64,000 bases of DNA from Fibrobacteria bacterium (GTDB lineage Bacteria > Fibrobacterota > Fibrobacteria > UBA11236). The stretch is from contig JAYTHY010000136.1 of assembly GCA_043732185.1 (NCBI GenBank), positions 2,326 through 66,325 of the forward strand. The letters are read 5' to 3'. Positions within the stretch are counted from its first letter, which is position 1; each line of letters starts with the position of its first letter. The notes beneath the pieces were generated by a model. It was not told the DNA's origin, did no database searches, and saw nothing but the letters and a program-made list of their open reading frames with translations. Position numbers and translations under genes: made by a program. Of this stretch, positions 26,201 to 48,400 are shown piece by piece.

Positions 26201-26343
26201 ACGACCCTGCTAGCCGCGTTGCCAAGCTAAAAAGTCATCCCCGCAATTATGGCGTGCTGCGGGATATCAATACCAAGCCCCGGACCAGCTATCTCGGCCG
26301 CGTTCGGAATCCCAATAAAGCCATCGAGAAAATCCAGGCATAA
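23185..26343 (+). CDS. actB: ACIII subunit ActB (fused molybdopterin-oxidoreductase-like plus 4Fe-4S ferredoxin domains)
   Basis: Tat-type [19 protein letters not shown]. Large CISM-like domain, then Cys clusters [33 protein letters not shown]...CAQAC. 1052 aa. Confidence 0.85.
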
Positions 26344-26368
26344 GGACCCGGGCAAGGGACAAAAGGCA

Positions 26369-27802: not shown

Positions 27803-27804
27803 AA

Positions 27805-28359: not shown

Positions 28360-28363
28360 GCCT

Positions 28364-28978
28364 TTGAAATCCCAAATTCGAAATTTGCTCGTCTTAACAG
28401 CTCTCGGAATGCTTTCGAGTATACTGGGATGTCGCGGTCAAACCACGGAAGAACGTCCCCTCTGGATTAAACACGGAATGGAATTCCAGCCTAAGTGGTT
28501 ACCCTATGGAAAAAACACCTTCTACGCCGACGGACGGAATATGCGAGCTCCTCCTGAAGGGACTGTTGCCGTAGGCTTGGTCAAGGAAGATGATGCGTAC
28601 TATCGCGGCGGAGAAGGACCGGATCATTGGGTTACAACCAATCCAGTTAAAGTCACGGCTGATTTGATGGAACGAGGTAAGGACCGATTCACCATTTACT
28701 GTACGCCTTGCCACGGTCAAACCGGTGTTGGCAATGGTATTGTCATTAAACGGGGCTTTATGGTTCCACCCAACTTTCATGATGAGCGTATTTTGACCAT
28801 GGCTGATGGTCAAATTTTCAGTACAATTTCCAATGGCGCGCGCTTGATGCCTTCATACGGCAAGCAAATTCCGGAAGAAGATCGTTGGGCCATTGTGGCC
28901 TATATCCGCGCATTGCAGCGGAGCCAGCGGGCCACCATTAGCGATGTTCCCGAGAGCGAACGCGCCCAACTGCAGTAG
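28364..28978 (+). CDS. actE: ACIII subunit ActE (monohaem cytochrome c lipoprotein)
   Basis: Single CTPCHG haem site. TTG start with GGAGGA SD gives the lipoprotein signal MKSQIRNLLVLTALGMLSSILGC. The ORF is open from 28328 and an alternative ATG lies at 28409. Confidence 0.7.
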   Translation: MKSQIRNLLVLTALGMLSSILGCRGQTTEERPLWIKHGMEFQPKWLPYGKNTFYADGRNMRAPPEGTVAVGLVKEDDAYYRGGEGPDHWVTTNPVKVTADLMERGKDRFTIYCTPCHGQTGVGNGIVIKRGFMVPPNFHDERILTMADGQIFSTISNGARLMPSYGKQIPEEDRWAIVAYIRALQRSQRATISDVPESERAQLQ

Positions 28979-28990
28979 CAAGGAATAGGG

Positions 28991-30190
28991 ATGTCACAGG
29001 ATAATTACCGATTGAACTTAAACCTGAAGGGTGGACCCATATTTTTGGGTCTTGGCATCCTGGGTGCTCTAGGTTGCGTCTTCAGTTTTATTAATAATCG
29101 CAAGGACTTTTTCTCTTCTTATCTCACGTCTGTGGCTTTCTTTTTAGCCATTTCCTTGGGAACTCTTTTCTTTGTCATGGTACAGCATCTGGCACGAGCG
29201 GGGTGGAGCACTACGGTTCGCCGATTGGCTGAAACCGTGGCCGCTAACTTAAAGTGGATGCCATTATTTTTCATTCCATTGGCCTTCGGGGTAAACGATC
29301 TTTTTCCTTGGCTCAATCCGGATATGCGTGCCCATGATATTCTGGTGCAAAAAAAGGCCGCCTATTTGAACATCACCTTTTTCACGATTAGACAAGTGTT
29401 TTATTTATCGGTTTGGTGGGTGCTAAGCTGGTACTTTTTGCGCACCTCGCTCAAACAAGATGAAACACGAGACCCCGGTTTATCGCCTCACATGGGGAAG
29501 GTGGCAGCGGGTGGATTGGCTCTTTTCGCCCTGACCCAAACCTTCTGGGCATTTGATTGGATTATGTCTTTGGAGCCCCATTGGTTTTCGACCATGTTCG
29601 GGGTGTACTTTTTTGCAGGGTCCATCGTAGCCCAGTATTGTGTTCTCATTTTGTTTATGACGGTGGCCCGGAAGGCAAGTGGGCGTGGAGATGTTTTCCG
29701 ACTAGAGCATTATCACGATTCTGGTAAGTTGCTTTTTGGCCACAATGTATTCTGGACTTATATCGGCTTCAGCCAATTTTTCCTCATCTACTACGCTAAT
29801 ATTCCCGAAGAAACCGTTTTCTTCTTGCATCGAGCTGCCGGATCCTGGAAAGTGGTCAGTTTGATGCTGCCATGGTTTCATTTTGCAGTTCCTTTTCTGT
29901 ACCTCATGTCATGGCATGTGAAACGTAATATTACGGCAATTTGCATTGGTGCGATTTGGCTATTGACCATGTGTTACATCGATATTTATTGGCTGATACA
30001 GCCAAATTTCCACCATGAAGGCGCTCATTTTGGAATAAGTGATATTAGCTCGATTTTAATGGTTGGCGGCTTCTTCATTTATTTGATTATTAATCGCTTC
30101 AAAACCTACAACTTCATACCTGCTGGGGATCCTCGCCTCAAAGAATGTCTAACCTATGACAATGGGATTATATCGCATGAGCAGCACTGA
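28991..30190 (+). CDS. actF: ACIII subunit ActF (second NrfD-like membrane subunit)
   Basis: 399-aa polytopic paralogue of ActC, in the canonical position. Confidence 0.75.
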   Translation: MSQDNYRLNLNLKGGPIFLGLGILGALGCVFSFINNRKDFFSSYLTSVAFFLAISLGTLFFVMVQHLARAGWSTTVRRLAETVAANLKWMPLFFIPLAFGVNDLFPWLNPDMRAHDILVQKKAAYLNITFFTIRQVFYLSVWWVLSWYFLRTSLKQDETRDPGLSPHMGKVAAGGLALFALTQTFWAFDWIMSLEPHWFSTMFGVYFFAGSIVAQYCVLILFMTVARKASGRGDVFRLEHYHDSGKLLFGHNVFWTYIGFSQFFLIYYANIPEETVFFLHRAAGSWKVVSLMLPWFHFAVPFLYLMSWHVKRNITAICIGAIWLLTMCYIDIYWLIQPNFHHEGAHFGISDISSILMVGGFFIYLIINRFKTYNFIPAGDPRLKECLTYDNGIISHEQH

Positions 30191-30698
30191 TCCTCGACAC
30201 GCAGACGCAGGAAACCATCATTCTACTTCGAATGAGGAACACGAATTATCGGATTTCGATTGGACAAAAATTATCTGGTCACTGCCGATTTTTGTCGCTA
30301 TTCTCATTGGCTTCACTTTGCTATGTGTGTACTCGTACCAAGGTTACCGAAATGATGAGTACCGAACCCAACAAGCAAAATTCCAGACAACGGAAATCAA
30401 TATTTTGCGAGCTGCTGAAAACGAAATACTGTCCCAATCCAAAACGCTAGATAAAGCAGCTGGTCGTTACCAGATTCCCATTGCTAAGGCCATGGAATTG
30501 ATTGTCGCCGAGCATCAAAATATCCCCGGCAGCGATTGGAAACCCATTGCGGATGTGTACATGCAAGGTGCACCTTTCGTGCCTGCACCGGAAGCAGCCC
30601 CAACAACTGAACCGAATGGTATTTCAATTGAAGAGGCTGCCGTGCCATCGGCTGCAACCAAAAAAGCATTAGTGCACACTAAAAAGAAGAAGCGCTGA
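30177..30698 (+). CDS. Small single-TM protein, possible ActG-like accessory subunit of ACIII
   Basis: One TM helix (IIWSLPIFVAILIGFTLLCVY), sandwiched between actF and sco. I cannot verify the family assignment from sequence. Confidence 0.35.
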   Translation: MSSTDPRHADAGNHHSTSNEEHELSDFDWTKIIWSLPIFVAILIGFTLLCVYSYQGYRNDEYRTQQAKFQTTEINILRAAENEILSQSKTLDKAAGRYQIPIAKAMELIVAEHQNIPGSDWKPIADVYMQGAPFVPAPEAAPTTEPNGISIEEAAVPSAATKKALVHTKKKKR

Positions 30699-30707
30699 TA
30701 CATCGGT

Positions 30708-31601
30708 ATGCATATTCTTTCTAGTAACCCCTTAACTACCACCCTAAAAACTTTCGCCATACTTTTGGTTTTGGCTGTGTTTTGCCGGGAAGTGAGTGCC
30801 TTTGGTGGGAGTTACAATGGGGGAGCCGGTTCCGTTCCAGCAAAAGATGGGCAGACGCTTCCAGATGCATTAGTTGATGTGGGCATTGAGGAGCACTTGG
30901 GTGAACAAATTCCACTTGATGCCGTATTTTTGGACGATGCAGGTAAGGAAGTACACCTCTCAGATTATTTTCAATCGGGCAAACCAGTCCTTCTTAATTT
31001 TGCCTACTATCAATGCCCCATGCTCTGCAATATGGTTCTAAATGGAATGCTGGGCGGCATGAAAAAAATGACATGGGTACCTGGTAAGGAATTCGAGGTC
31101 GTCACGATCAGTATTGATCCAAATGAAGGACCTGATTTGGCGGCAGCAAAAAAAGAAACCCATATCAAAGCTTTGGGAAACCCTAATGCGGCAGTGGGAT
31201 GGCACTTTTTGACAGGTACGGAAACAAATATTCGCAAGGTTGCCAAAGCTGTCGGTTTCAAATACCAATATATGGCAGTAAGCAAGGAATTCGCACATTC
31301 AGCGGGTATATTCACGATTTCGCCGGCTGGAAAAATTTCCCGTTATCTGTATGGAGTGGAATTTCGATCCAAGGATCTAAAACTGGCTTTGTTGGATGCC
31401 TCGGAAGGCAAGTCCATTTCTTTCGGCGATAAAATCGTGATGTTCTGCTATCGCTATGACTCCAATGCAAAGGGCTATGTTCTGTTTGCACGCAACTTTA
31501 TGAAGGGTGGCGGCATTGTGGTTATATTGGGCCTGGCTTTGCTTTTAGGCGGGCTCTGGCGCAAGGAATTCAATCGACGCGATCCTGTTCCAAGTCACTA
31601 A
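30708..31601 (+). CDS. SCO1/SenC-family copper chaperone with an extra C-terminal TM helix
   Basis: Thioredoxin-like fold with CPMLC (CxxxC) and a downstream His. N-terminal signal plus C-terminal hydrophobic helix. Confidence 0.7.
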   Translation: MHILSSNPLTTTLKTFAILLVLAVFCREVSAFGGSYNGGAGSVPAKDGQTLPDALVDVGIEEHLGEQIPLDAVFLDDAGKEVHLSDYFQSGKPVLLNFAYYQCPMLCNMVLNGMLGGMKKMTWVPGKEFEVVTISIDPNEGPDLAAAKKETHIKALGNPNAAVGWHFLTGTETNIRKVAKAVGFKYQYMAVSKEFAHSAGIFTISPAGKISRYLYGVEFRSKDLKLALLDASEGKSISFGDKIVMFCYRYDSNAKGYVLFARNFMKGGGIVVILGLALLLGGLWRKEFNRRDPVPSH

Positions 31602-31623
31602 ATACCGGATGTAAGAGAAGCAT

Positions 31624-32565
31624 ATGGACAACAGCAAAACTTTCTGGCTCCCTGAAAAGGCCTCTACCTTTGTCGATATGGTAGATCCGGCTTTTATGCT
31701 CTTTTACTGGATTTCGATCTTTTTCTTTGTGCTCATCTGCGCATTGATCCTCGTTTTTACTTTTAAATACCTTCGCCGTCGGCCCAATCAGCTTGCTACT
31801 GCCCAAATAACGCATAACCTCAAAATCGAACTCGCCTGGACGTTAATTCCCTTATTCATCGTAATGGGCCTTTTCTTCATTGGCATGAAAGGTTATCTGC
31901 ACATGCGCATAGCTCCAGCTGGTTTCATGCAGGTTAATGTGCAGGGCCAAAAATGGAGCTGGAGTTTTGAGTATCCAACCGGGGCAAAAAATGATACGCT
32001 GGTCGTACCAGTGGATACTCCCGTAAAACTTGTTATGACTTCCCATGATGTCCTTCACAGCTTTTATGTACCCGCTTTCCGAATTAAGGCGGACGTCCTA
32101 CCCAATCGATATACCTCACAATGGTTCCAAGCGACCCGGACAGGTGTATTTCAGGTGGAATGCACTCAGTATTGCGGTACCAGTCATTCCTACATGTTGA
32201 CTTCAGTAAAAGTGCTCGAAGCCGATGCCTATCGCGAATGGTTGTTGGCCGCCTCCGATCCTAGCAAAGGCCTAACTCCTGAACAGTACGGCGCATTGCT
32301 CTATGCGAAACGGGGTTGCAATGCTTGCCATAGCGTGGATGGTACCAGAGGTGTGGGTCCTTCATGGAAAGGCATTGCTGGGATTTCGGAAAACTGTGGC
32401 CCGGCAGGAATGGTTACTATCGACGATGCCTATCTCCGCGAATCAATGATGGACCCAACGGCCAAAGTGGTCAATGGCTTCTTGCCAGTGATGCCCACAT
32501 TTAAGGGCCAACTAACTGATAGGGAAGTAGAAGCCCTTATTGCGTACATCAAATCCTTAAAGTGA
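31624..32565 (+). CDS. coxB: Cytochrome c oxidase subunit II, caa3-type, with a C-terminal cytochrome c domain
   Basis: CuA site ECTQYCGTSHSYM and a C-terminal CNACHS haem c motif. Confidence 0.85.
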   Translation: MDNSKTFWLPEKASTFVDMVDPAFMLFYWISIFFFVLICALILVFTFKYLRRRPNQLATAQITHNLKIELAWTLIPLFIVMGLFFIGMKGYLHMRIAPAGFMQVNVQGQKWSWSFEYPTGAKNDTLVVPVDTPVKLVMTSHDVLHSFYVPAFRIKADVLPNRYTSQWFQATRTGVFQVECTQYCGTSHSYMLTSVKVLEADAYREWLLAASDPSKGLTPEQYGALLYAKRGCNACHSVDGTRGVGPSWKGIAGISENCGPAGMVTIDDAYLRESMMDPTAKVVNGFLPVMPTFKGQLTDREVEALIAYIKSLK

Positions 32566-32603
32566 GAAACAAGTAAAAAGGTTTAAAACCCGGACGGATT
32601 CAC

Positions 32604-34208
32604 ATGACTGCCCACGCACATCCTGAAAATATCAACTATCTGAAAGCGAGCCGGGGCATCATGTCCTGGTTGGTGACTGTAGATCACAAGCGCATCGGCA
32701 TGATGTACTTAGCCTCCATATTATGCTTTTTTATCGCCGGTGGTACGTTCGCCTTTCTTTTCCGGTTAGAACTGTGGAGTCCGTTAAAGGAATTCCTCAC
32801 GCCGGATCAATACAATCAATTTTTCACTCTGCACGGCGTCATTATGGTCTTTTTAGTAGTGGTACCCGGAATTCCCGGTGCCTTGGGAAACTTTATTCTC
32901 CCCCTCCAAATTGGCGCCAAGGATTTGGCTTTTCCTAAACTCAATTTGACCAGCCTCTACCTTTATTGGATTGGTGCTGCACTGGCATTATGGAGCATTG
33001 TGGCCGGTCACGCGGATTCAGGATGGACCATGTATGCGCCATACTCCCTTTCCCAGAATCCCGCTGTTTTATGGATGTTAGTCGCAGCATTTATATTGGG
33101 CTTCTCATCCATTTTAACCGGATTGAATTTCTTGGTGACGATGCATAATATGCGGGCTCCTGGTATGACCTGGTACCGCATGCCTTTATTTCTCTGGGCG
33201 ATGTATGCCACCGCGATCATGCAAATTTTCGCGACTCCGGTCCTTGCTTTAACATTAATGCTATTGCTAATGGAAAATTTCTTCCATATTGGAATTTTTG
33301 ATCCAGCCTTGGGCGGGGATCCCTTGCTCATGCAGCATTTCTTCTGGTTTTACTCCCATCCTGCTGTGTACATAATTATTGTCCCAGGATTTGGAATCAC
33401 ATCGGAACTCATTACTTGTTTCGCCAAAAAAGATATTTTCGGATACAAATTTGTGGCCTACTCCTCCATTGCTATTGCCATCATCGGCTTTATAGTCTGG
33501 GGACATCATATGTTTGTGTCCGGTCAGTCTGAATTGGCTGATTTTATATTTTCCTTCTTAACCTTCTTTACGGCAGTACCATCGGCCATTAAAGTCTTTA
33601 ACTGGACAGCGACCCTTTATAAGGGCTCAATTGATTTAAAGACACCGATGCTCTATGCCTTACAGTTTCTGTTCAACTTCACTATTGGGGGATTGACTGG
33701 AATCATTCTGGGTATTCTTTCCGTGGACATTCACCTCCACGACACTTACTTTATCGTTTCACACTTCCATTATGTTGCGATGGGCAGCACCATGATTGCC
33801 TTTATCGGTGGCATTCATTATTGGTGGCCAAAAATGACCGGTAAAATGTACAACGAATTCTGGGGGCGTTTTGGTGCCATCTTGGTCTTCATCGGCTTCA
33901 ATGTGACTTTTTTTGTGCAACTGATTATGGGTTCACAGGGAAGTCCACGACGTTACTACCATTACCTGGATCAATTTCAGATTTATCACCAGATTTCCAC
34001 CGTTGGGGTCGTCATTCTGGCTACTGGACTGTTCATGGCCCTCATCAATCTACTGGTATCGTTAAAGACCGGAGTAGCTGCTGGAAAAAATCCTTGGGGA
34101 GCCAAGACCCTGGAATGGCAGGCCGATTCTCCTCCGGTACTGTATAACTTTACTGAAATACCCGTTGTCACTGAAGGTCCCTATGCCTTTGAGACGGAGA
34201 AAGCATAA
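32604..34208 (+). CDS. ctaD: Cytochrome c oxidase subunit I
   Basis: 534 aa with 12 TM helices and the conserved His ligands and GHPEVY-like blocks. Confidence 0.9.
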
Positions 34209-34861
34209 TGGCCACCGCACATACCGGATTAAAAGATCACGAAGTCGCCCATCATTTTGATTCGCTAGAACAGGAATTTGAATCTGCCAAGACGGGAATG
34301 TGGCTGTTTCTGGCTTCTGAAATCATGATGTTTGGAGCACTTTTTGTTGGGGCATTAGTGTTCCATACCTTGCATCCCGCGGCATTCGCCGAAGGCTCAC
34401 AGCACCTAAATTGGCATATGGGTGCAGTGAACACTTTTTTCCTTTTGACCAGTGGTCTAACCATGGGACTTGCAGTAATTGCGGCACAGCGCTCCGATCA
34501 AAATGCCGTACGCTTAAACTTGGTGTTAAGTATACTCTTCGCATCTGGATTCTTAGTTGTAAAGTTTTTTGAATATAAGGCCAAATTTCATCATGGCACT
34601 CTACCTGGCAAGCTATTTCACGGAGAAGGGTTCCACGATCCATTCGTCCACATTTTCTACAGCTTTTATTTTGTAATGACTGGCCTTCACGGTCTCCATG
34701 TCCTCATTGGAATGGGTTTAATGACATGGTGTTTGATTCGTTCCGGCCAAACGCGATTTACTCGAAGCTACTTTACCCCAATCGAAAACGTGGCCATGTA
34801 CTGGGCGCTTGTTGATTTTGTTTGGGTCTTTTTGTTTCCTCTCCTCTATCTCATTGGATGA
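34208..34861 (+). CDS. ctaE: Cytochrome c oxidase subunit III
   Basis: 217 aa, polytopic, with typical CoxIII blocks. 1-nt start/stop overlap with ctaD (TAATG). Confidence 0.8.
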   Translation: MATAHTGLKDHEVAHHFDSLEQEFESAKTGMWLFLASEIMMFGALFVGALVFHTLHPAAFAEGSQHLNWHMGAVNTFFLLTSGLTMGLAVIAAQRSDQNAVRLNLVLSILFASGFLVVKFFEYKAKFHHGTLPGKLFHGEGFHDPFVHIFYSFYFVMTGLHGLHVLIGMGLMTWCLIRSGQTRFTRSYFTPIENVAMYWALVDFVWVFLFPLLYLIG

Positions 34862-34866
34862 ATACC

Positions 34867-35274
34867 ATGGAACAACCCGGTCATGCCATTCCAAAATCTA
34901 CCATTGTGGGCACCTATATTGGTTTATTGGTGCTGGCGGCTTTGATGCTCGCCATTTCGCGTATTCCAGTTGAGCGTCTTTCCATTGACTGGATCAATCT
35001 GCATGCCGTAAAAACCTGCGTGGTTTTGCTTATAGCCTTTACGATGGCGTCGATTATCGCCTTGTATTTAATGGGTTTGCGTTACGACCATAAATTTCTG
35101 AATATTACCATCTTCCTATCCAATTTTGCCTTCCTGCTCATTTTCGTACTTTTTACCTGGGCGGATACTTCCTTCCGTGAAAAAGTGGATCCCGTATTCG
35201 GAAAAAGTGTTGAATTTGAATCGCCTGTAAAGGTTGATTCCGCCGGTGAAGAAAGTCACGCACCTGCCCCTTAA
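34867..35274 (+). CDS. Cytochrome c oxidase subunit IV-like small membrane protein
   Basis: About 135 aa with 3 TM helices, immediately after ctaE. The start is set at the Met after the ctaE stop. Confidence 0.5.
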   Translation: MEQPGHAIPKSTIVGTYIGLLVLAALMLAISRIPVERLSIDWINLHAVKTCVVLLIAFTMASIIALYLMGLRYDHKFLNITIFLSNFAFLLIFVLFTWADTSFREKVDPVFGKSVEFESPVKVDSAGEESHAPAP

Positions 35275-35944
35275 AACTGAAGTTGTTGCCGGATCAGACC
35301 CTACTTTTTTTAAGGGTTCCTTCTTGGTTTTCCTGCTATTTCTTCCAGCCTTTTTGCTGATTATTCTTGCCATTTTGTTAGCCATGCAATACAAGCAATT
35401 GCGGGCATTTGTTTCTCCTCAGGCCATTGAACTATTAACCGTACCCGTTTCGCCGGAAGCCCAAGTAGCAGTGGTGGCCAAGCTGCACACCTTTTTTACA
35501 AATGCGCGTTCCGATAGTTTATCAGACACATTGGCCCTGTCCATAGTCGAGGTAAACCATCTCGTTCGGTCCAGTTCGTCCTTGGAAGCATTACACCTTG
35601 ATTACCATATGGATATTCAGGACACCCTGCTGATAGCCCATAACAGTTTGCCGGTGGACCGATTAAATGGCGTTCTATCCCTCCTTGCTAAAACCTTACG
35701 TGTGAAGGGCTTCCTCAATTCGGAAATGCGTGGCTATATCACTGTTTCAAAATCCGGGGTAAATATTATACCCGTTTCAGCAACCATGAATGGAGTAGCC
35801 GCGCCGATTTCCGTCTTGAATCGCAAAGGCGGAATTGATCCTTCCGAATGGGTCGCGGATCGAGACTTTTACAACCGTTGCTTGGCCCGCTTGTCCGGTA
35901 TTGAGATTCGAAATGGCTCTCTGCTTTTTATTAAACGGCCTTGA
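35234..35944 (+). CDS. Hypothetical membrane protein trailing the oxidase operon
   Basis: One strongly hydrophobic helix (FLVFLLFLPAFLLIILAILLA). The start is uncertain and the 3' end converges on and overlaps the ECF sigma gene. Confidence 0.35.
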   Translation: MIPPVKKVTHLPLKTEVVAGSDPTFFKGSFLVFLLFLPAFLLIILAILLAMQYKQLRAFVSPQAIELLTVPVSPEAQVAVVAKLHTFFTNARSDSLSDTLALSIVEVNHLVRSSSSLEALHLDYHMDIQDTLLIAHNSLPVDRLNGVLSLLAKTLRVKGFLNSEMRGYITVSKSGVNIIPVSATMNGVAAPISVLNRKGGIDPSEWVADRDFYNRCLARLSGIEIRNGSLLFIKRP

Positions 35945-36444
35945 GCCTGCATGTCCCGCTTAAACCGAGTGAGCCTGCGCGTAATGGCAACCCTGGATAC
36001 GCCCATATGTACGGCAATTTCTCGGTGATTGAGTCCTTGTTCCAGGCTCAAGTGTAAAATCTCTTTCAGCTTCCCGCGTACTTTTGGGAGGGCTTTTTCC
36101 AAGCGCATGCGGTGCAAAACATGGTCTTCCTCCGGCTCCCGGAAGTTGCCTATCGTATCTTCATAACCCATTTGACTTCGCTTGTCCATTTGGTCGCGAT
36201 GCTTTTTAATTCTACTGAAACAGTCGTATTTGGCGATGGTGCCAATCCAGGTGAGGGGATCGCATTTCCATTCAAAATCGTTCCACGCACGAAAGGCTTT
36301 AATAAAGACATCATGTGAGGCATCTCTGGCTTCTTCCCTGTCTTTCAAAAAATATTGGCAGATACCCAAAACCTTTTGATGGTACCTGCTATAAAGTAAT
36401 CCTTGCCAATCCGCACTATTTTTCAATTCTTCATTAGCCGTCAT
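35869..36444 (-). CDS. ECF-subfamily RNA polymerase sigma-70 factor
   Basis: Sigma-2 region (HDVFIKAFRAW) and sigma-4 HTH (LNHREIAVHMGVSRVAITRRL). Confidence 0.8.
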   Translation of the reverse strand: MTANEELKNSADWQGLLYSRYHQKVLGICQYFLKDREEARDASHDVFIKAFRAWNDFEWKCDPLTWIGTIAKYDCFSRIKKHRDQMDKRSQMGYEDTIGNFREPEEDHVLHRMRLEKALPKVRGKLKEILHLSLEQGLNHREIAVHMGVSRVAITRRLTRFKRDMQAQGRLIKSREPFRISIPDKRAKQRL

Positions 36445-36598: not shown

Positions 36599-37612
36599 TT
36601 ATCTCGTTGCAGGAACTTGGTCGAGAAGGTCCTGGTTTCCATCAGGCCAGCACAATCCGGAAGCGGGTCGGCACGGGAAATGGAAATGCAAGAGAACGGG
36701 TCCATCAGGGGGCGGAGTGCTCCGATTATTTTTAGAGGTCGCCACAGTGACTTCTGCAAGCACGGTAACGGCTGGAACTAAATATTCGCCGTCCCGTGAA
36801 TTGGCTGAACCCAATTTTTCTTTGGTTACGACGTAGCTTTCAAAGATGCGCACGGGCTTGATGAAGCGAATGGCGAGATTATCTGGATGGAAAGGATAGG
36901 TATAGGTTCGAGTGTGGGTTCGCGATTTCTCCCATTTTTTAAGGCTATCCGCCACCATTTCTTTGGACGGGATTTGCTGTGAACCTGTTTCAACCAACTC
37001 TGGATCCCGGAAAGAAAAGGACTGAAGTGCGCCACCAGCACCGTAGGCCACACGAATTTGCATCGCATCCCCGAGTACAATGCGGCCATCTACTTTTTTT
37101 AGATAGCGACCTATGTAGTAGGCCGGTACAGCCGGACCAACGCTATCTTTGTGTTCCGGATCTCGCTTTTGGACCATGGTTATTTCATAATTGGCAAAAA
37201 CCAGGTTTTCAATTTTTTCTCTCAGGACGGATTTTACAAGCATATCCGATTTAAGGTGGATTGACGAATCCGGAACAACATCTTTTTGGGTGAGTGCCGG
37301 AACCATTTCATTGGTAAAGGCGAACTCGGATGTCGCAGGTTCATATGCCAAGCGTGCACCAACCCTGTCATGCCAACTGGTATTGACCCCGGATATTTGG
37401 GGCTTACCCATTGGCCGAAGTTTAAAGGTTGCCAATAGTGATTTGATATTTTCTGGATTTAAGGGACGCGGCGCAATTTGGTAATATTTTGCGGTCACAT
37501 ATTCACCGGGTTGGGATTGCACTACCGGGGCAGTAGGTGCCGCATTCGAAAGGGCCACAAAAAGGCCGGCCAATGTCCATATCGAAATTTGCTTTTCCAC
37601 TTTTCGCTCCAT
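36599..37612 (-). CDS. Hypothetical secreted protein (operon member C)
   Basis: Signal peptide. No recognisable domain. Confidence 0.5.
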   Translation of the reverse strand: MERKVEKQISIWTLAGLFVALSNAAPTAPVVQSQPGEYVTAKYYQIAPRPLNPENIKSLLATFKLRPMGKPQISGVNTSWHDRVGARLAYEPATSEFAFTNEMVPALTQKDVVPDSSIHLKSDMLVKSVLREKIENLVFANYEITMVQKRDPEHKDSVGPAVPAYYIGRYLKKVDGRIVLGDAMQIRVAYGAGGALQSFSFRDPELVETGSQQIPSKEMVADSLKKWEKSRTHTRTYTYPFHPDNLAIRFIKPVRIFESYVVTKEKLGSANSRDGEYLVPAVTVLAEVTVATSKNNRSTPPPDGPVLLHFHFPCRPASGLCWPDGNQDLLDQVPATR

Positions 37613-37658: not shown

Positions 37659-38492
37659 TTAGTACTGCGGTGTTCCAATAATCCGGGAGTAATAATTTCC
37701 GCTATTGGCGATTGCCAAAGCGTAATCGTGGTTCACGTTCCGGAAGGTGGTGCTGCAATGGTCCGGGCTTCCCGCAAATACTTGTGCGGATAGGCAACCG
37801 GGTTCCAAACCTCTTGTGGGGTACAGATGCTTGTATCCATAGTTGGCCTCGGCATCGAAAAAGGCGTTGTAGAGATTTTTTTCGCGAAATGTCCAGTTGA
37901 GCCAAAAATCATTGAACAAATCCCAGCTTAGATTATTGTCGTAGATCAGAGACTTAAAACTGAGCATGGCTTTTAGGCCACGAAAGGAAGTTTGCCAGGC
38001 ATCGGCAGGGGGTGTGGCCGTTTTGAAAATGGAACAGCCGTGGGCCATAAACCAACGGGTGTATCCGGTTCCAAGCGATAAATTATTGGGTCCCACTGCA
38101 CCATAGTTGACACCTGCTCCAAGGTAGAGATTGCCGCTGATTCCGTGACCACCATAATACACGAAATCGCAATATTCACGGTTGCCTTGGGTATTGCTTC
38201 CAGAAGTTATTGCGGCTTTGGTGACGTACGTATTCCGTTTGTCCAACGCAAATGTTGGTCCAGTGGTGCCCAAGCCTGGGGAGGCGTTCAGGCTGGAGAA
38301 GGGTGGTACATTGACATTGGCGCCAGCAAAAAAGTTTTGGCCCATAGCAATTTGATAGCTGAGATTGGGGAGACCACCGCCATTGCCTCCATAGTCGTCA
38401 ATTGTATAGGTGCCAATATCCAAGCTGGGTGGAAAGGCCGATACCAATACCGTTAACGCACCAATGGCAATCAAACCTTTGGAAATATTCAT
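37659..38492 (-). CDS. Hypothetical secreted protein with a possible clan-CD-like His-Gly / Cys dyad (operon member B)
   Basis: Signal peptide. DFVYYGGHG, then WFMAHGCS about 37 residues later. The peptidase interpretation is a hypothesis only. Confidence 0.5.
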   Translation of the reverse strand: MNISKGLIAIGALTVLVSAFPPSLDIGTYTIDDYGGNGGGLPNLSYQIAMGQNFFAGANVNVPPFSSLNASPGLGTTGPTFALDKRNTYVTKAAITSGSNTQGNREYCDFVYYGGHGISGNLYLGAGVNYGAVGPNNLSLGTGYTRWFMAHGCSIFKTATPPADAWQTSFRGLKAMLSFKSLIYDNNLSWDLFNDFWLNWTFREKNLYNAFFDAEANYGYKHLYPTRGLEPGCLSAQVFAGSPDHCSTTFRNVNHDYALAIANSGNYYSRIIGTPQY

Positions 38493-38534: not shown

Positions 38535-39440
38535 CTAAAGTCCATGGGTTCGGAGTGTAAGGGTGTTGTTGGTGTGCATGGACAGAATCTTTTTGCCAAT
38601 TTCGAACTCTTTTGGTTGCATCTGGTCTAGTTCTACTACTTCATATATTTCCACTTCACTGCCATGCTGCCCGGTTGAATTGGGGCTTAGCCTTAACAAT
38701 CGTAGGGGATAATGGCCTTCCGGTAAGGGTCCAAGCCGAAGGGAATCCAGTTTTACCGGCCAATAAAAGGGCGAGCCAGGAATATAGAAACTGAGAACAG
38801 AATTATTTAGAGTTGTAGACTGCGTCACGATATTTGTCGCATTACACTTTCCCTGGAAATAGCGTTCTGTTCGATCCAAAAAGTTCGAATTTTCCGGAGT
38901 TAAAGAAGTTGCAGGATCAATAAGCTGGCCGCTAGATGTCGAGTATTTGAATCCCATTAAAAACGATTTACCCCAGCGAGTAGACACAATCAGTATGTTG
39001 AAATCTAAAGTGTCACGGCCCTGTGTAAGCAGGGGAGACAGGCTGGCGGAGGAAAGCGTCACCGTATCCAGCTCCTGAAAAGCAATCGTTACCTGTGGTA
39101 CGGAATCCAAGGAGGGAATGGCACTGCTTTTAAAAATCGTCAGGGAGCCGTTGATTTTAAAGCCCACTGCCTGAAAGGTGGAGTCCAAGAAGGAGAATAA
39201 AAATTTTAAATCTTTGCCAGATTTCCATTTAACCTGTATGGTGGTGTCGCCAACCAAATCAGGAGGCCAGGTTGTTCGCGACGATGCACCGGCCAGCAAA
39301 TCTTGATCTTCAACTTTTGAATCTGTTTTTGAATCGGAACCAGGTAGACTTGTGTCCGGAGCCATACAGCCAAGGACAAACAGGCCGAATACCCAAGTGG
39401 AGACATACTTTTTTCCAGATTTCCAGCGGATTGTTTTCAA
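38535..39440 (-). CDS. Hypothetical lipoprotein (operon member A)
   Basis: Lipobox VFGLFVLGC. No recognisable domain. Confidence 0.5.
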   Translation of the reverse strand: MKTIRWKSGKKYVSTWVFGLFVLGCMAPDTSLPGSDSKTDSKVEDQDLLAGASSRTTWPPDLVGDTTIQVKWKSGKDLKFLFSFLDSTFQAVGFKINGSLTIFKSSAIPSLDSVPQVTIAFQELDTVTLSSASLSPLLTQGRDTLDFNILIVSTRWGKSFLMGFKYSTSSGQLIDPATSLTPENSNFLDRTERYFQGKCNATNIVTQSTTLNNSVLSFYIPGSPFYWPVKLDSLRLGPLPEGHYPLRLLRLSPNSTGQHGSEVEIYEVVELDQMQPKEFEIGKKILSMHTNNTLTLRTHGL

Positions 39441-39455: not shown

Positions 39456-40349
39456 TCAACGGGTATTGGGAATGATTTGAAATACCAAGGTGCAGACTTT
39501 ATCCGTTTTTTTATCCTTGGCGACAACTTCTTGAATTTCATCATCGAGCGCCGCCACTTTTTCACGGATGATTTTTAGGCTTTCATTGGATACGGTCAAC
39601 ACTTGGGTATTGTAGGCTTTGAATTTTCGAAATCCATCCTCGACAATACTGGAACTGAGATCATGAATTTGGCGGTTATAGCCTAAGGCAACTTCCCCCT
39701 GGAAGGCATCACCGGAAATCAGCAAATTGTTGGTGAGTGCGTACCCGGTATCTGACTTTCGAATCATTTGGAGATCGACGAGCAGATCAATGGCTTCCTG
39801 CACCTGGTCGGCGGAAATGGGAGGGTAGATTTCCTTGGCGATATCTGCAGGGCGAACTTTTTTTTGATCCAGCCCTAGGTAGTTGAAAACGACAGCGTAA
39901 TACCATTTGGCGTAGTACTTGTGCTGATTCTCCCGCACGATCCAGGCTTTGGAATTCCTAAATTTTGAAAGCTTGCCGAACAAAAAATTCCTTTCCAGGT
40001 CTGACCTGGCCTGGTTATGCTGAACCAGAACATCAAAATACTGGTTTTCCTTTTCGCCCAGGGAGAGAGCGGCCGCACAGCGAACCCGCAACTTGGGACC
40101 CAAATCCCGCTTGCCTTGCATCACGGAATAGAGCAGCGCCGTCGACCCAAAATATTTCAGGGAAAACGCCCGCTTGGAAAACTTGCTATTGCCTTTCTGT
40201 TTCCATTTCATAAAATCGGTCAAAAAGAGCCTGTATTCCAAATACTGGAACAGGCTAGGCTTGATCGAGTTGTTATGTGAAATAAGAGTGTTCAAATGGT
40301 CCGTCCGGTAACCGGAATTTTGCCTAGGCAGCAAAAATTCCAACTCCAA
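39456..40349 (-). CDS. TIGR02147/DUF4423-like protein (Fibrobacter/FCB-group conserved hypothetical family)
   Basis: N-terminal YLEYRLFLTDFMKWKQKGNSKFSKRAFSLKYFGSTALLYSVMQGKRDLG fits the family pattern as I recall it. 15-nt gap to the downstream lipoprotein gene. Confidence 0.45.
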   Translation of the reverse strand: MELEFLLPRQNSGYRTDHLNTLISHNNSIKPSLFQYLEYRLFLTDFMKWKQKGNSKFSKRAFSLKYFGSTALLYSVMQGKRDLGPKLRVRCAAALSLGEKENQYFDVLVQHNQARSDLERNFLFGKLSKFRNSKAWIVRENQHKYYAKWYYAVVFNYLGLDQKKVRPADIAKEIYPPISADQVQEAIDLLVDLQMIRKSDTGYALTNNLLISGDAFQGEVALGYNRQIHDLSSSIVEDGFRKFKAYNTQVLTVSNESLKIIREKVAALDDEIQEVVAKDKKTDKVCTLVFQIIPNTR

Positions 40350-40411: not shown

Positions 40412-41419
40412 TTACTCCACCGTCCACGTGCTGCCGGAGTTGAATAGTTTGTCCAAGCTAGGAGGATTTTTGGCGGCTGCCGTATCGATCTGAGCGCGCA
40501 TGGCATCCGCATAGGAAGGCCTATCGACATTACGGAACACGCCCACCGGAACGGGGTACTCGGGATGGGACAATCGGGAGAGGTGAAAACCCAATGCACC
40601 GGTAGATTCCTTTTCATCATGCACCAGGATCTCAGAATCTAAGGGGTTCACCTTGGTCTTGATGGCCATCTTGTCCAGAACCAGAGCTTTTTCCAATTCT
40701 TTGCCATAGCGCATGGGCTGACCATGCTTTAAATAGAGTAGGGTATCTGGGCGGGTTGGGCGGCCATAGTACGGCTCGTGAATTTTATCCGCAAAGATAA
40801 TGCAGTTCTGGAGCACTTCAACCAATGCCGTTCCTTTATAAGCCGCAGCTGCAGCAAATACTTCACCCATATGTTTCACGTCATTGTCGGAGGTCCGGGC
40901 CACAAATCCGGCTTCAGCTCCAATGGCCATGCTGATAGGTGACAACGGCAAGTCTACGGAGCCCATGGGTGTGGAGGGGCTCACCGTCCCAACGCCGGAG
41001 GTGGGGGAATACTGGCCTTTGGTTAATCCATAGATTTTATTGTTGAACAGGATAATCTTGAGATCCATGTTTCGACGCAGGGCGTGGATAAAATGGTTGC
41101 CGCCAATGCTGAGCGCGTCGCCGTCTCCGGTAATGACCCAAACTTGGAGATTGGGGTTGCTGAGCTTGACTCCAGTTGAAATGGCGGGTGCCCGACCATG
41201 GATGGTATGAAATCCATAGGTGTTCATATAGTACGGGAAGCGACTGGAACAGCCGATGCCGGATACGAACACAAAATTTTCCTTGGGAAGGCCCAAAGTT
41301 GGCAGAATGCCTTGCATGGTGGACAAAATGGAATAATCTCCGCAGCCCGGACACCATCGAATGGCGGAAGGTGACGCAAAGTCTTTACGCGAGAGCGGTT
41401 CGGCCGTAGTCGTTGTCAT
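40412..41419 (-). CDS. korB: 2-oxoacid:ferredoxin oxidoreductase beta subunit (TPP-binding)
   Basis: CPGCGDYSIL and a TPP-binding GDG block. Confidence 0.85.
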   Translation of the reverse strand: MTTTTAEPLSRKDFASPSAIRWCPGCGDYSILSTMQGILPTLGLPKENFVFVSGIGCSSRFPYYMNTYGFHTIHGRAPAISTGVKLSNPNLQVWVITGDGDALSIGGNHFIHALRRNMDLKIILFNNKIYGLTKGQYSPTSGVGTVSPSTPMGSVDLPLSPISMAIGAEAGFVARTSDNDVKHMGEVFAAAAAYKGTALVEVLQNCIIFADKIHEPYYGRPTRPDTLLYLKHGQPMRYGKELEKALVLDKMAIKTKVNPLDSEILVHDEKESTGALGFHLSRLSHPEYPVPVGVFRNVDRPSYADAMRAQIDTAAAKNPPSLDKLFNSGSTWTVE

Positions 41420-43308
41420 TTCTGAGTCTCCAAAATGCGATGAAATTCTGCGGTGAGATAGGAAATTTTAAAGGGCTTGCCACGAACCTGGCTAATGCTT
41501 TGAATAGGCACGCCAAAGGTACCTCCCAACAACATTTTCAATTGACCCATATTCAATTCGGGTACAATGATCCGTTCGGCATTTCTGAGGATTTCGCCCA
41601 GGTTACGTGGGAATGGATTCATGTGCTGAAGATGGACGTGTCCGAGTTCCATGCCGCCTTTATTGCATTCATCGACTGCCGTCGAGACAGAGCCATAGGT
41701 TCCACCCCAGCTGACAACGATAGTCTTAGCATTTTTGTGGCCTGCTATTTCAATCAGAGGAATGTCATTGGCGATATTGGCAATTTTGGCGTGTCGCTCA
41801 TTGGTCATGGCCTGATGATTTTCCGGATCATAGGAGATTGTTCCTGTATTGTGGGCTTTTTCCAAACCACCGATGCGATGCTCTAACCCTTGAGTTCCCG
41901 GTATGGCCCACTTTCTGGCCTGAGTAATGGGATCCCGCTCATAAGGCATAAAGGCTTCTCCAGCCTGAGCGAGCTTCACTTCCATTTTAGGCAGTTTATC
42001 CGGGTCTGGAATAATCCACGGTTCCGATCCATTTGCGATGAACCCATCCGTCAATAGAATGACGGGAGTCATATATTTCATGGCGATACGGGCAGCCTCA
42101 TAGGCCATTTCAAAACAGTCACCGGGTGAACGGGCCGCTAATACCGGGAGTGGGCTGTCGCCACTGCGGCCGAACATAACCATCAGTAAATCACTTTGTT
42201 CCGTTTTTGTCGGCAATCCTGTGGATGGGCCACCGCGTTGCACGTCGATGATGACTAATGGCAGTTCCGTCATGACGCCGAGACCCATGGCTTCCAGCTT
42301 AAGGCAGACACCCGGTCCGGAGGTAGACGTGACACCCAAGTTACCGGCATATGCCGAACCGATGGCAGAGCAAATGGCCGCAATTTCATCTTCCGCTTGG
42401 AAGGTAATGACTCCGTAATTCTTGTATTTGGATAATCCGTGAAGGATATCGGATGCGGGTGTGATTGGATAGCTGCCGCAGAAAATATTGCGCCCGGATT
42501 TTTGTGATGCCGCGAGCAGACCGAATACAGTAGCCTCGTTGCCGGAGATCTTACGGTACTTGCCTTTGGGCAGCGCCGCTTTTTTGACTCGGTAATGCGA
42601 AGTGAAAAGCTCTACCGTGTCTGAAAAATAGAATCCGGACATCAGCGCCTTTTTATTGGCTTCGGCAATTTGTGGCTTATCCTTATACTTGGTTTTGGGA
42701 CCATACTTTTCATCCAACCACTTCAAGGTATGATTGAGCGGACGGTCGTACAGCCAATACATCATGCCTAAGGTGAAGAAGTTTTTGCACAGCTCTGCGG
42801 ATTTGCCTTTAAGACCTGTTTCGGCTACGGCGTTGATGGTAAGCTCCGTGATATTGGCACGAATGACGCGGTAACCGGCAAGTGACCCATCCTCCAAGGG
42901 ATTGGTTTTGAACTCGGCCTTTTCAATATCTTTTTCCGTGAAACCGGCTTCGTCCACTAGGAGTATGCCGCCTTCTTCCAGATCCGCGATGTTGGCTTTG
43001 AGCGCGGCTGCATTCATGGCTACCAAAACATTCAGGTCATCCCCGGGTGTTTTGATTTCTTCCGATGAAAAATGGATTTGAAAAGCACTGACGCCGGCTA
43101 CGGTACCGGCAGGCGCTCGAATTTCCGCGGGAAAATCCGGCATGGTGGCCAGATCGTTTCCAAAAAGGGCAGAGGCATCGGTAAATTGGGTGCCCGTGAT
43201 TTGCATGCCATCACCGGAATCTCCAGCGAATCGGATAGTAACCGAATCCACATCGATATGGGCTTTTTCATTGGGATTGATCGGGATGTTATGTACTTCT
43301 GTTGACAT
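41416..43308 (-). CDS. korA: 2-oxoacid:ferredoxin oxidoreductase alpha subunit (fused alpha/gamma)
   Basis: 630 aa with POR/KOR N-terminal and catalytic domains. 4-nt overlap with korB. Confidence 0.85.
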   Translation of the reverse strand: MSTEVHNIPINPNEKAHIDVDSVTIRFAGDSGDGMQITGTQFTDASALFGNDLATMPDFPAEIRAPAGTVAGVSAFQIHFSSEEIKTPGDDLNVLVAMNAAALKANIADLEEGGILLVDEAGFTEKDIEKAEFKTNPLEDGSLAGYRVIRANITELTINAVAETGLKGKSAELCKNFFTLGMMYWLYDRPLNHTLKWLDEKYGPKTKYKDKPQIAEANKKALMSGFYFSDTVELFTSHYRVKKAALPKGKYRKISGNEATVFGLLAASQKSGRNIFCGSYPITPASDILHGLSKYKNYGVITFQAEDEIAAICSAIGSAYAGNLGVTSTSGPGVCLKLEAMGLGVMTELPLVIIDVQRGGPSTGLPTKTEQSDLLMVMFGRSGDSPLPVLAARSPGDCFEMAYEAARIAMKYMTPVILLTDGFIANGSEPWIIPDPDKLPKMEVKLAQAGEAFMPYERDPITQARKWAIPGTQGLEHRIGGLEKAHNTGTISYDPENHQAMTNERHAKIANIANDIPLIEIAGHKNAKTIVVSWGGTYGSVSTAVDECNKGGMELGHVHLQHMNPFPRNLGEILRNAERIIVPELNMGQLKMLLGGTFGVPIQSISQVRGKPFKISYLTAEFHRILETQK

Positions 43309-44625: not shown

Positions 44626-45447
44626 GTGGGTGAAAGTACAAAAAACCGTTTCGGAGCCAGAATCATCGGGATTGTAACGTCCGCTAACCGAAAGGATCCA
44701 GAAGCTTGGAGCGCCCTAGCAAAATGCGCTATGGTTGAATTCCGCGCCGACAGCTGGGAAGCCTCCCAGATTCCGACAGAATTACGGTCTTTCCGGGACG
44801 AATACAAACAACGGTTTGGTTCCGACCCTGAGACGATTTTCACTATTCGCTTAGCACGGGATGGTGGCGCGTGGCTCGATTCCGAGGCAGCTCAACGGGA
44901 CAAAATTTGGATAGCCCTGGAAGGGGATGAAGCAGGATGCCAGAGTGAGTGGATTGATGTGGAATTGGAACATATCGCTTCGCTTTCCCCAGCGTTGGTT
45001 TCCTTGATCGCGGACAAAAAATTCAAGGTACTTGTGTCCCACCACAATTTTGAGGGCAGCTACAGTAAAGAGGCGCTTGCACGTTTGGGTCGGGACATGC
45101 TGGCTGTTCGGGCCGATGGTATAAAACTGGCCACCACGTGTCGAACCCGAGCAGAGGTACTGAATCTCATGCATTTCGCGCGAGAAGCCGCCATAAGTCG
45201 AAAGCCCGCCGCAGTTCTAAGCATGGGTACCGTAGGCCAGGCTATGCGAATATTGAGTCCGCTACTGGGTTGCCCATGGACCTATGGTTATCTTTCAGGA
45301 GGTGCGGTGGCCCCGGGCCAATTTTCCGTCAGTCAAATGCACAATATTTTTACCAGGATGGACGTGCCAATGCAGCCAGACCTATCGGATTCGGAAATGT
45401 TTGATTGGGTGGAAGGCCGCCTAAATGAGGCGCTCCTTGCGAATTAG
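44626..45447 (+). CDS. aroD: 3-dehydroquinate dehydratase, type I
   Basis: VEFRAD, VSHHNF, the Schiff-base Lys region IKLAT, and SMGTVGQAMR motifs. GTG start. Confidence 0.75.
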   Translation: MGESTKNRFGARIIGIVTSANRKDPEAWSALAKCAMVEFRADSWEASQIPTELRSFRDEYKQRFGSDPETIFTIRLARDGGAWLDSEAAQRDKIWIALEGDEAGCQSEWIDVELEHIASLSPALVSLIADKKFKVLVSHHNFEGSYSKEALARLGRDMLAVRADGIKLATTCRTRAEVLNLMHFAREAAISRKPAAVLSMGTVGQAMRILSPLLGCPWTYGYLSGGAVAPGQFSVSQMHNIFTRMDVPMQPDLSDSEMFDWVEGRLNEALLAN

Positions 45448-48400
45448 CTTGGCTCGAAAATGGACGCTCAAAAGCCTCTTGTTCTCGGCGATCCTCTGTG
45501 GATGGTCTCTGGGATGGGGACAAGAATTCGGCCAAAACAAAGTGCAGTTCCAGCAATTTGTTTGGTCTTATTACCGAACGGAACATTTCGATATCTACTT
45601 TCCGCAAGGTGCGGAGCTGATCGCGAATTTTGCAGGAGGCCATGTTGAGGAGATGTATAAAAGTGTTTCCGCAACAGTCGGCCATCGACTCACGGGACGC
45701 GTTCCTATTATCCTACACAATTCGCATGTGGAGTTTGAACAGACCAATGTCATCCGCCTCCCTTTGCATGAAGGCATCGGTGGCTTTACGGAAATTTTCA
45801 AGAACCGGATTGTGCTTCCGTTTGAAGGCAGCTATACGGAATTTTACCATGTCTTAAAGCATGAAATGACCCATGCTGTCATGTTCGATATGATGTTTGG
45901 TGAAAGCGCCGCTTCCAAGGTTTCCAATCAAGGTGGCCAATTTCCGTTATGGGTGAGCGAAGGCTTGGCTGAGTACGCTTCCTTAGGTTGGGATCTGTCT
46001 TCAGAATTTTTCATGGTGGATGCGACCACTTTTGGTTATGTCGAACCGCCCACTTCCGACTTCGGTGGGTTTTTAGCCTACAAAGGAGGCCAACTGTTTT
46101 TCCATTGGATGGAAAAAACCTACGGCAAGCCTGCGGTCACAAAATTAATCCAAAGTATGACAGACTCGCATGACCTTCCTCAAGCATTTAAAAAAGTAAC
46201 CAAGACATCATTGGAAGAGGCGGGGGAAATCTGGCTGCGTGAATTGCGATACCTTTATTGGCCGGAACTCGGTCAGCGTAAATACGGTAAAAGTATAGCC
46301 AGACGATTAACGGAACACGGCAAAGACTTATCCTTTTTCAATTTGCAGCCATCCATATCGCCCAATGGCGAGGAGATTGCCTTTTTCAGCGATAGAGAAT
46401 CTTGGGAAGCGATATTCATTCTCAATATCAAAAGCGAAAAAGTCACCCGCTCAGTCATTCAAGGAGGAAAGGAAGGGAAGCATGAAAGCTTTCACTCTTT
46501 TAAATCGGGAATCACCTGGAGCCCGGACAGCAAGCAACTTGCTATTGTCAGCAAAAGTCAAGGGAAAGACGTCATCAATATCATCGATGCGCGCAAAGGC
46601 ACCGTCAAGCGAACCATCACTCCTGAAGTGCAGGCTATACTATCGCCAAATTGGTCGCGCGATGGCCGACGAATCGCCTTCAGTGGCATGCAAGATGGCC
46701 TCACCGACATTTATGTCTGGGATTTAGAAACCAGCACGTTATTGCGATTGACACATGATTTGGCCCATGATGATAAACCGGTATTTTCTCCTTCTGGACG
46801 CTGGATAGCGTTTGAAACGGACCGGCCGGATGCTGCGATCCGACCGCTTTCTCCCCATCCTCTAGACGACTACAATCAGTTGCTTCCATTTAAGGATATC
46901 TATAAGATTCGTAGTGAAGGGGACAGCCTGGTCAAAGTGGCCGGCGGCAATTGGGATGAAAAGGAGCCCTCCTACGGTCCGTCCGACACCACCCTGATGT
47001 TCATTTCCAATCGGTCCGGCATCGACAACATTTATATGAGCAAGGATTCGGTCGGTATGTCTTTGGTCAGACCCGTAACCAACCTGCTTTCCGGATGTTT
47101 CACGCCATCGTGGTCGAGAAGCGGTGGACTGCTGGCTTTTTCCCTTTTTGAAGAAGGAGGTTGGGATATTTTTCTGATGAAGGATCCGGTGAGTAAAGTT
47201 ATTTCTGGTGAGCTTCCCAAAACCCGTTTTATCAAAACCCAAGAAGACAGCGCCTTAAGTTTCTTTCGCCCATTAAATTGGGCGAACCTCTCCAGCTACA
47301 ATGCCGACAGTGTCCGCACGGATTCGCTTGGAAGACTAGACTCCTTAAAAAAAGTTGCCAGCAAAGATTCAACCCGTAAAGACAGTCTCTCTAGGGATAC
47401 AACGGCCAAAACTGTCCCATCCGATACGAATAAAAACACGGTGGTTGCCGAGAAGGCCCCTTCCGGCGACAGTGTGGAATCAGCAGGGAGCAAGAAAAAA
47501 GGGAAGAAGAAAAAGGATTCCGTTTTTCTGACTGACAGCTCCGCGTATCTGGCCGGTGATGGAGGGTTTTTAAAACGAAAATACAAGCCTGTATGGAGTC
47601 TGGACAATGCTAACGCGGCCCTAGGAGTTGACAACCAGTATGGATATGGAGGCCTAGCATATATAACCTTGAGCGATTTAATGGGCGATCAGGAGTTGTC
47701 CTTTGCCCTCAGCATCAATGGTAGCTGGGAGAATACGAATGGTTCAGTTGCTTACAGCTATTTGCCCATGAAAACGGATTTGACAATTAGTGCCTACCAC
47801 CAAGCCCAACTTTCGAATGGATTGCTGCAGGATTCCGGCTCGATATCTCCGCCAGACAGTGTGTTTCTGGACAGACAATTTGGTTTCGGAGCAATGGCGC
47901 GTTACCCTTTTTCGGTATATACGCGGCTTGAGTTTGAAGCCAGAACTTTGTTTTCTTCCCGAAGTCTGCAGTCTAATCAGGGTGGCAAATTTGTCACTGA
48001 TAATAGCTATGATCCCATTACCATCAACGCGGTTTTTCCAACTTTGAAATGGGTGCATGACAATACCATCTGGGGAATTGTCGGTCCTGTGAATGGGGAA
48101 CGAGTTTACGGTGCTATCCAGGCCGTACCGCCGGTATTTCAAGATCATATTTCCTTTTATACGCTTGATGCTGATGCCCGTAAATACTGGGAGTTTTTTA
48201 AAAAGTATACTTTAGCTGTCCGAGTCTCCGCAGGCGCTTCTGAAGCCATCGGCAATTATGAAAATCCGCACCAATTCTGGGTAGGCGGTGAAGATTTCAC
48301 TTTTAATGCGCATGCAAATTCGGCGAATCTCCCGAAAAAGCTGGAAGAGTTTTACTTCTCACAATTCGATTTTCCATTGCGGGGATTCGACTATTATGAA

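Follow-up and report, generated by a model that had tools for sequence, protein, structure and literature searches.

The cysteine peptidases of clan CD are built on an α/β/α sandwich whose central sheet is ordered 2-1-3-4-5-6, and in caspases the chain runs β1-α1-β2-α2-β3 to the His and a small sheet on L3, continues through α3 and β4 to the Cys on L4, and ends in α4 and α5 (PMC4357240). Around this fold the gingipains (C25), legumain (C13) and clostripain (C11) have extra parts, whether a prodomain at the N-terminus, an Ig-like or LSAM domain at the C-terminus, or both, and CHAT proteases, among them SAVED-CHAT (8tl0) and the anti-sigma factor DdvA (8rot), are cytoplasmic or membrane-anchored multidomain signalling proteases. 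The residue two positions before the catalytic Cys lines the S1 pocket and is Gln in caspases and Asp in metacaspases. By comparison, the Pfam family DUF6345 (PF19872) carries no functional annotation, and the single literature mention of it that we found is an entry in the proteome table of a vesicle study, where a Tannerella forsythia member is listed with a predicted outer-membrane location.

Here we describe a DUF6345 protein encoded within a 64,000-nucleotide stretch of Fibrobacteria DNA that was analysed as a whole (hereafter the window; Table 1). Five co-directional minus-strand genes downstream of korAB encode, in order, a TIGR02147 protein, a lipoprotein (protein A), the DUF6345 protein (protein B), a second secreted protein (protein C) and an ECF sigma factor. 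We propose that B is likely an active Cys-His peptidase of clan CD type, exported and single-domain, with a caspase-hemoglobinase fold as judged from its predicted structure, and that it probably constitutes a new family of exported cysteine protease.

Table 1. Positions of the features discussed (window coordinates; in the last four rows, coordinates of the named distant loci)
Feature	Position	Strand	Remarks
tRNA-Leu (CAA)	10338..10424	minus	sole tRNA gene of the window
Alternative complex III and caa3-type oxidase cluster	23185..35274	plus	other flank of the five-gene cluster
236-aa ORF	35234..35944	plus	one transmembrane segment; follows the oxidase genes; no family match
ECF-type sigma-70 family sigma factor	35869..36444	minus	TIGR02937 (E 8e-21), Sigma70_r2/r4; 154 bases downstream of C
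Protein C	36599..37612	minus	337-aa secreted protein; 46 bases downstream of B
Protein B	37659..38492	minus	277 aa, ATG start; DUF6345; candidate clan CD cysteine peptidase
C-terminal end of B	37659..37676	minus	G-x-P-x-Y-COOH
Cys233 and Cys246 of B	37755..37796	minus	clade-invariant cysteine pair; codons 37794..37796 and 37755..37757
Cys153 codon of B	38034..38036	minus	confirmed in the DNA
WFMAHGCS of B, residues 147-154	38031..38054	minus	strand β4, then candidate nucleophile Cys153
His116 codon of B	38145..38147	minus	confirmed in the DNA
DFVYYGGHG of B, residues 109-117	38142..38168	minus	strand β3, then candidate catalytic His116 and Gly117
Signal peptide of B, residues 1-19	38436..38492	minus	MNISKGLIAIGALTVLVSA, read from the sequence; cleavage predicted before FPPS
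Protein A	38535..39440	minus	301-aa lipoprotein; 42 bases upstream of B
TIGR02147/DUF4423 protein	39456..40349	minus	TIGR02147 (E 5e-54), DUF4423 (E 1.2e-14); 15 bases upstream of A
korAB, 2-oxoacid:ferredoxin oxidoreductase	40412..43308		upstream of the five-gene cluster
PD40 beta-propeller protein	45425..48703	plus	1092 aa
Resolvase-type serine recombinase	49403..50191	plus	
Distant two-gene locus L018	5001-6729		DUF6345 gene and downstream secreted ORF
Distant two-gene locus L019	2272-3999		DUF6345 gene and downstream secreted ORF
Distant two-gene locus L022	360-2076		DUF6345 gene and downstream secreted ORF
Distant two-gene locus L020	816-2226		DUF6345 gene and downstream secreted ORF

The reading frame of B is preceded by a Shine-Dalgarno-like AGAGGA about 8 bases 5′ of its ATG, and its N-terminus, MNISKGLIAIGALTVLVSA|FPPS, reads as a Sec signal peptide, with a comparable hydrophobic segment at the start of every orthologue in a 25-sequence alignment; B would be exported by this route. 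Both the signal peptide and the motif pair of the mature protein had been pointed out in the initial annotation, which saw in DFVYYGGHG and, some 37 residues later, WFMAHGCS a candidate His-Gly...Cys dyad of the clan CD kind. The predicted signal peptide agrees with similar N-termini among the orthologues; the distance from His116 to Cys153 is indeed 37 residues, and the dyad itself is supported by its conservation and by the caspase topology of the structural model described below.

Among 5.8 billion proteins searched, 82 proved homologous to B, at 36-97% identity, nearly all of them 247-294 aa long and, where named, from Fibrobacteres/Fibrobacterota MAGs; DUF6345 is recognised in all but two, the exceptions being a short fragment and a probable chimera. 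One sequence, P0082 (226 aa, on an 820-base contig), joins TPR repeats to a final stretch of 76 residues that matches the C-terminus of B at 76% identity, probably as the product of an assembly or gene-calling chimera on this very short contig. Among 25 Fibrobacterota orthologues the invariant positions include His116, Gly117 and Cys153, together with Arg105, Arg146, Cys233 and Cys246, and when the comparison is extended to 49 diverse relatives, down to 18% identity, the only invariant columns left are those of His116 and Cys153. The His-Gly...Cys pattern thus goes beyond chance, because the dyad persists unchanged across both the orthologues and the 49 relatives. Nor is it lost in the family at large: among family representatives, taken as clusters at 50% identity, both residues are kept in 91 of the 94 that cover both sites. 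Counted singly, His116 is present in 95 of 97 (with Gly after it in 91 of 97) and Cys153 in 93 of 96; in 86 of these 96 a small residue (Ala, Ser or Gly) stands just before the Cys.

An AlphaFold2 model of B built on the 25-sequence orthologue alignment is of moderate confidence (mean pLDDT 63.9, pTM 0.70), with the N-terminal two thirds mostly confident and residues 173-186 and 217-251, the expected place of β5 and β6, below 50 pLDDT. It contains a strand at residues 25-30, a helix at 47-61, a strand at 80-86 and a helix at 92-96, then a strand at 108-114 leading to His116, a small hairpin at 116-123 and a helix at 135-138, and finally a strand at 145-151 leading to Cys153, followed by helices at 186-201 and 207-216. 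Element by element, this order of secondary structure is that of the caspases: the mature protein would fold as β1-α1-β2-α2-β3-[His116-Gly117]-small hairpin-α3-β4-[Cys153]-β5-α4-α5, in which we place the conserved KAMLSFKS (residues 174-181) tentatively at β5. The model agrees with the α/β/α sandwich of sheet order 2-1-3-4-5-6 that defines the clan CD fold, and the motifs fall where the clan has them, His116-Gly117 after β3 and Gly152-Cys153 after β4. The equivalence of His116 and Cys153 to the clan CD catalytic residues is one that we infer from topology and conservation rather than from measured geometry.

Structure comparison of the model placed SAVED-CHAT (8tl0) at the top with a score of 11.8, followed by caspases 8, 1 and 3 (10.4-10.5), metacaspase-9 (10.3), CED-3 (10.2), MALT1 (10.2), RgpB (10.0), the asparaginyl endopeptidase OaAEP1 (9.9), legumain (9.8), GPI transamidase (9.2), separases (about 7.9) and clostripain (7.5). 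Foldseek likewise returned SAVED-CHAT first (E 4e-6, probability 1.00) and then legumains and caspases, so that two independent programs rank clan CD first, and every top match that is a characterised enzyme is a peptidase or a transamidase. Two of the checks proposed with the initial annotation are answered by these data: strands 108-114 and 145-151 directly precede the candidate His and Cys, placing each at a strand end, and the predicted fold, far from being an unrelated one, was matched to clan CD ahead of all else by Foldseek and by the second comparison.

At the level of sequence, B matches DUF6345 at 39.8 bits (E 4.5e-10), above the curated threshold of 26.9, and all 25 aligned orthologues match the family too. 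The match extends over profile positions 64-170 of 221 only, and because of this restricted coverage B is placed in a divergent, Fibrobacterota-specific branch of DUF6345, distinguished by features of its own, namely a cysteine pair and a GxPxY C-terminus. The pair, Cys233 and Cys246, falls in a low-confidence part of the model and is not conserved in the wider DUF6345 family; it probably forms a disulfide, as would suit an extracytoplasmic protein. The G-x-P-x-Y end is invariant in the clade, and in the approximately 20 closest family clusters the Gly is kept in 19 of 20, the Pro in 19 of 19 and the Tyr in 15 of 16. The terminal aromatic residue resembles those of outer-membrane-protein C-termini, the kind sensed by envelope-stress proteases.

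The Pfam scan of B and its 25 orthologues detected DUF6345 and no clan CD family, and that of the 49 relatives yielded beyond DUF6345 only marginal matches to Peptidase_C14 (E 0.019) and CHAT (E 0.12), one of each. PDB sequences searched with B by phmmer, and with the 25- and 49-sequence profiles, gave noise only. Against human caspase-3 and -7, represented by approximate sequences, hhalign of the family profile aligned nothing in global mode and reached a probability of 0.1 in local mode, where the alignment paired DFVYYGGHG with FVCVLLSHG and misplaced the Cys; we give this pairing no weight. By sequence, then, B belongs to none of the existing clan CD families C11, C13, C14, C25, C50, C80 and Pfam CHAT, and since none of them matches significantly, B would form a new family of the clan if assigned to it. 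The DUF6345 family is not known to have been assigned to clan CD, and B is best described as representing a sequence family that is new to an established clan. Scans of B with NCBIfam, PHROGs and PADLOC gave no match, and nothing in the PHROGs and PADLOC results points to phages or defence systems as the origin of A, B or C; paralogues of the three were likewise absent from the rest of the 64-kb window.

Set beside the caspases, metacaspases and paracaspase of C14, B shows the same predicted fold, with helices and strands in the same order, and likewise has a His-Gly after β3 and a small-residue-Cys after β4. Its distant DUF6345 relatives read 'HADHG ... LDDCS', reminiscent of metacaspase motifs. 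Unlike C14 proteins, B is predicted to be exported, shows no evidence of a caspase-type dimer or of an inter-subunit cleavage site, and belongs to a family in which the S1-lining position, residue 151 (the His of 'AHGC'), varies: where B has His, most of the clade has Asn and many distant members have Asp. From the CHAT proteases it differs as a 258-residue exported single domain that Pfam CHAT does not match, and from the gingipains, legumain and clostripain by having neither prodomain nor Ig-like or LSAM domain and no sequence match to C25, C13 or C11; separately encoded partners may take the place of the extra domains found in enzymes of the gingipain and legumain type.

In the mechanism that we propose, the Sec signal peptide would direct B through the inner membrane. 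As judged from sequence and model, mature B would start some five residues before strand β1, leaving no N-terminal prodomain. By analogy to caspases, legumain and gingipains, and given the near-absolute conservation of the two residues, Cys153 would act as the nucleophile and His116 as the general acid/base; on the same analogy, the backbone of Gly117 would help to bind P1 and the oxyanion.

A transpeptidase or ligase could also use this fold and dyad, sortase-like in that it attaches a cleaved partner (such as C or A) to another molecule; GPI transamidase, asparaginyl ligases and PorU, a gingipain-like protein, act in this way. We regard this as unlikely for B: the sequence offers no means of telling a ligase from a hydrolase, neither A nor C bears a recognisable sorting signal, and the C protein of the window has no Pro-rich C-terminal tail. 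Less probable again is a Cys-His hydrolase that reuses the caspase-like scaffold for a substrate other than protein, for example the stem peptides of peptidoglycan or a different amide or ester. The predicted periplasmic location of B would suit such a role, a YpeB-like fold of the kind predicted for its partner C regulates a cell-wall hydrolase in Bacillus, and one distant DUF6345 protein carries a CBM96 carbohydrate-binding module; against it, B has no cell-wall-binding domain, and its characterised top structural matches are without exception peptidases or transamidases. That B is an inactive pseudo-peptidase, retained on the caspase fold as a binding or scaffold subunit in the manner of c-FLIP or Raptor, is very improbable, for pseudo-enzymes usually lose the dyad and here His and Cys are the sole positions invariant among the 49 relatives, with the Gly after the His also kept. 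A chance resemblance of the His-Gly...Cys motif in an unrelated fold, which could appeal to the nonsignificant hhalign comparison with the approximate caspase-3 and -7 sequences and to the moderate confidence of the model, is effectively refuted by the first rank of clan CD in two structure-comparison programs, the element-by-element match to caspase topology and the invariance of the dyad in the family.

Taking B as a clan CD peptidase, its regulation deserves separate consideration. Since it has no prodomain, control in trans is probable, and B could be governed by its operon partners or act on them. Protein A has an L-x-G-C lipobox after a hydrophobic segment in 14 of 14 orthologues, which further share the motifs AGA[ST]SxTxWP, FYIPGSP and GPxPxGxxPxRLLR; Pfam, NCBIfam, PHROGs and PADLOC scans of A gave no match. 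Protein C combines a signal peptide with a conserved domain of about 300 residues that carries the invariant C-terminal motif HFxFPCRPxxGLCWPDG. In other species either Ala/Lys-rich repeats of the KDSxAAxxKA type, as long as about 400 residues, or a Pro-rich linker stands before this domain, and a Pro-rich tail that the protein C of the window lacks comes after it. The model of C is confident (pLDDT 80.7) and resembles YycI, YycH, the PepSY domains of YpeB and a fungalysin propeptide, so that C is predicted to adopt a tandem PepSY-like (YycI/YycH/YpeB-like) fold. The likeness is structural only: Pfam PepSY (PF03413) failed to match C and two of its orthologues even at E 10, Pfam as a whole gave no match to C, and its NCBIfam, PHROGs and PADLOC scans returned sub-threshold noise. 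C further differs from PepSY, YpeB, YycI and YycH proteins and from M4 and M36 propeptides by its own HFxFPCRPxxGLCWPDG motif. We also considered C as the anti-sigma factor of the adjacent ECF sigma factor and rejected this possibility, since C and its longer orthologues show a signal peptide followed by low-complexity linkers and lack a cytoplasmic domain.

Proteins of the PepSY/YpeB/YycI fold regulate extracytoplasmic enzymes or hold them inactive, the propeptides of M4 and M36 peptidases being one example. YpeB in particular is described as regulating the cell-wall hydrolase SleB in Bacillus (bioRxiv 10.64898/2026.06.01.729290). Protein C could then be an inhibitor, chaperone or substrate of B, and lipoprotein A its membrane anchor or partner; these roles are drawn from the conserved gene order and from what PepSY/YpeB/YycI folds do elsewhere, and any specific model of how A, B and C work together by such analogy is a tentative and rather doubtful one. 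To our knowledge PepSY-like proteins have not been connected with clan CD enzymes, nor has trans control by a secreted partner been described for the clan.

The wider DUF6345 family is small, comprising 112 clusters at E ≤0.001 when the profile was run against 1.84 billion representatives of clusters at 50% identity, and its members come mostly from uncultured bacteria. Longer proteins of the family add PKD, CARDB, CBM96 or DUF2341 domains, whereas the short, distant ones are rich in cysteines, begin with a signal peptide or lipobox and show the HADHG and LDDCS motifs; both sets of features would suit extracytoplasmic enzymes. In that distant subfamily, whose identity to B is about 20-29%, the DUF6345 gene is followed at exactly 10 bases by an ORF for a secreted protein of 323-329 aa, an arrangement seen in four independent contexts (Table 1). 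This ORF has no Pfam match and recalls protein C in size and position, and hhalign of the protein C family against these distant downstream partners, and against a VWA neighbour, showed no significant similarity; a two-gene module shared across subfamilies is thus a lead, not a result. The VWA protein in question is encoded 10 bases downstream of another distant DUF6345 member. At one of the loci with the secreted 323-329-aa ORF a gene for a true PepSY protein stands two genes upstream, and a 528-aa DUF6345 member is found among conjugation-type genes.

One might nevertheless read the family as a whole as prodomain-less exported clan CD peptidases organised in two-gene modules with a co-translated secreted partner, with release tied to TIGR02147 and the ECF sigma factor. 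In Fibrobacteria the tandem PepSY-like C would then hold the peptidase inactive in trans and the lipoprotein would anchor the pair, and release could constitute a proteolytic switch for envelope signalling. This broader reading is a speculative one that we think improbable as it stands. More immediately, DUF6345 gains a testable function, that of a Cys-His peptidase of caspase fold with named catalytic residues, and clan CD would gain a compact, exported and prodomain-less branch. The recurrence of a downstream secreted partner, PepSY-like in Fibrobacteria, suggests that a caspase-fold enzyme may be controlled in trans, and in Fibrobacteria the genes would form a conserved envelope module adjoining an ECF sigma factor. 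Assigning a domain of this kind to the caspase fold is a useful annotation that would not surprise a specialist and does not amount to a new kind of system.

The genomic surroundings of the cluster are themselves conserved. When one genome per species was scanned, 13 related loci emerged, all from uncultured Fibrobacteria/Fibrobacterota MAGs and the closest of them 97% identical; wherever a related locus extends far enough, the order korAB-TIGR02147-A-B-C-sigma-cox is preserved. Across these loci A diverges fastest (28-35% identity), followed by C (47-51%) and B (57-61%). As synteny in the related MAGs extends over all of the korAB-to-cox region, gene order alone is a weak sign of functional coupling, and the tight spacing of TIGR02147, A, B and C is the better argument for an operon. 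The first gene of the cluster belongs to TIGR02147 ('Fsuc_second'), a paralogous family described from Fibrobacter succinogenes. On the other flank, the alternative complex III genes encode a 1052-aa Fe-S subunit, an NrfD-like ActC, ActD and a cytochrome c subunit, and are followed by SCO1 and then by COX2 with a fused cytochrome c, COX1, COX3 and COX4; the presence of complex III and a caa3 oxidase points to an aerobic respiratory chain in the source bacterium. The 236-aa ORF that follows occurs in all related loci, and at its 3′ end it shares 76 bases with the sigma-factor gene, which is convergent to it.

Next to the ECF sigma factor gene no anti-sigma gene was recognised, and scans for sigma-70 promoters and terminators remained at background level. 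On the minus strand, the ECF-type pattern GGAAC-N15-18-CGT is absent from the DNA preceding the cluster and from that preceding the sigma gene. Counted over the whole window and on both strands, the same pattern occurs 13 times against 5.6 expected, a number that none of the shuffled sequences reached.
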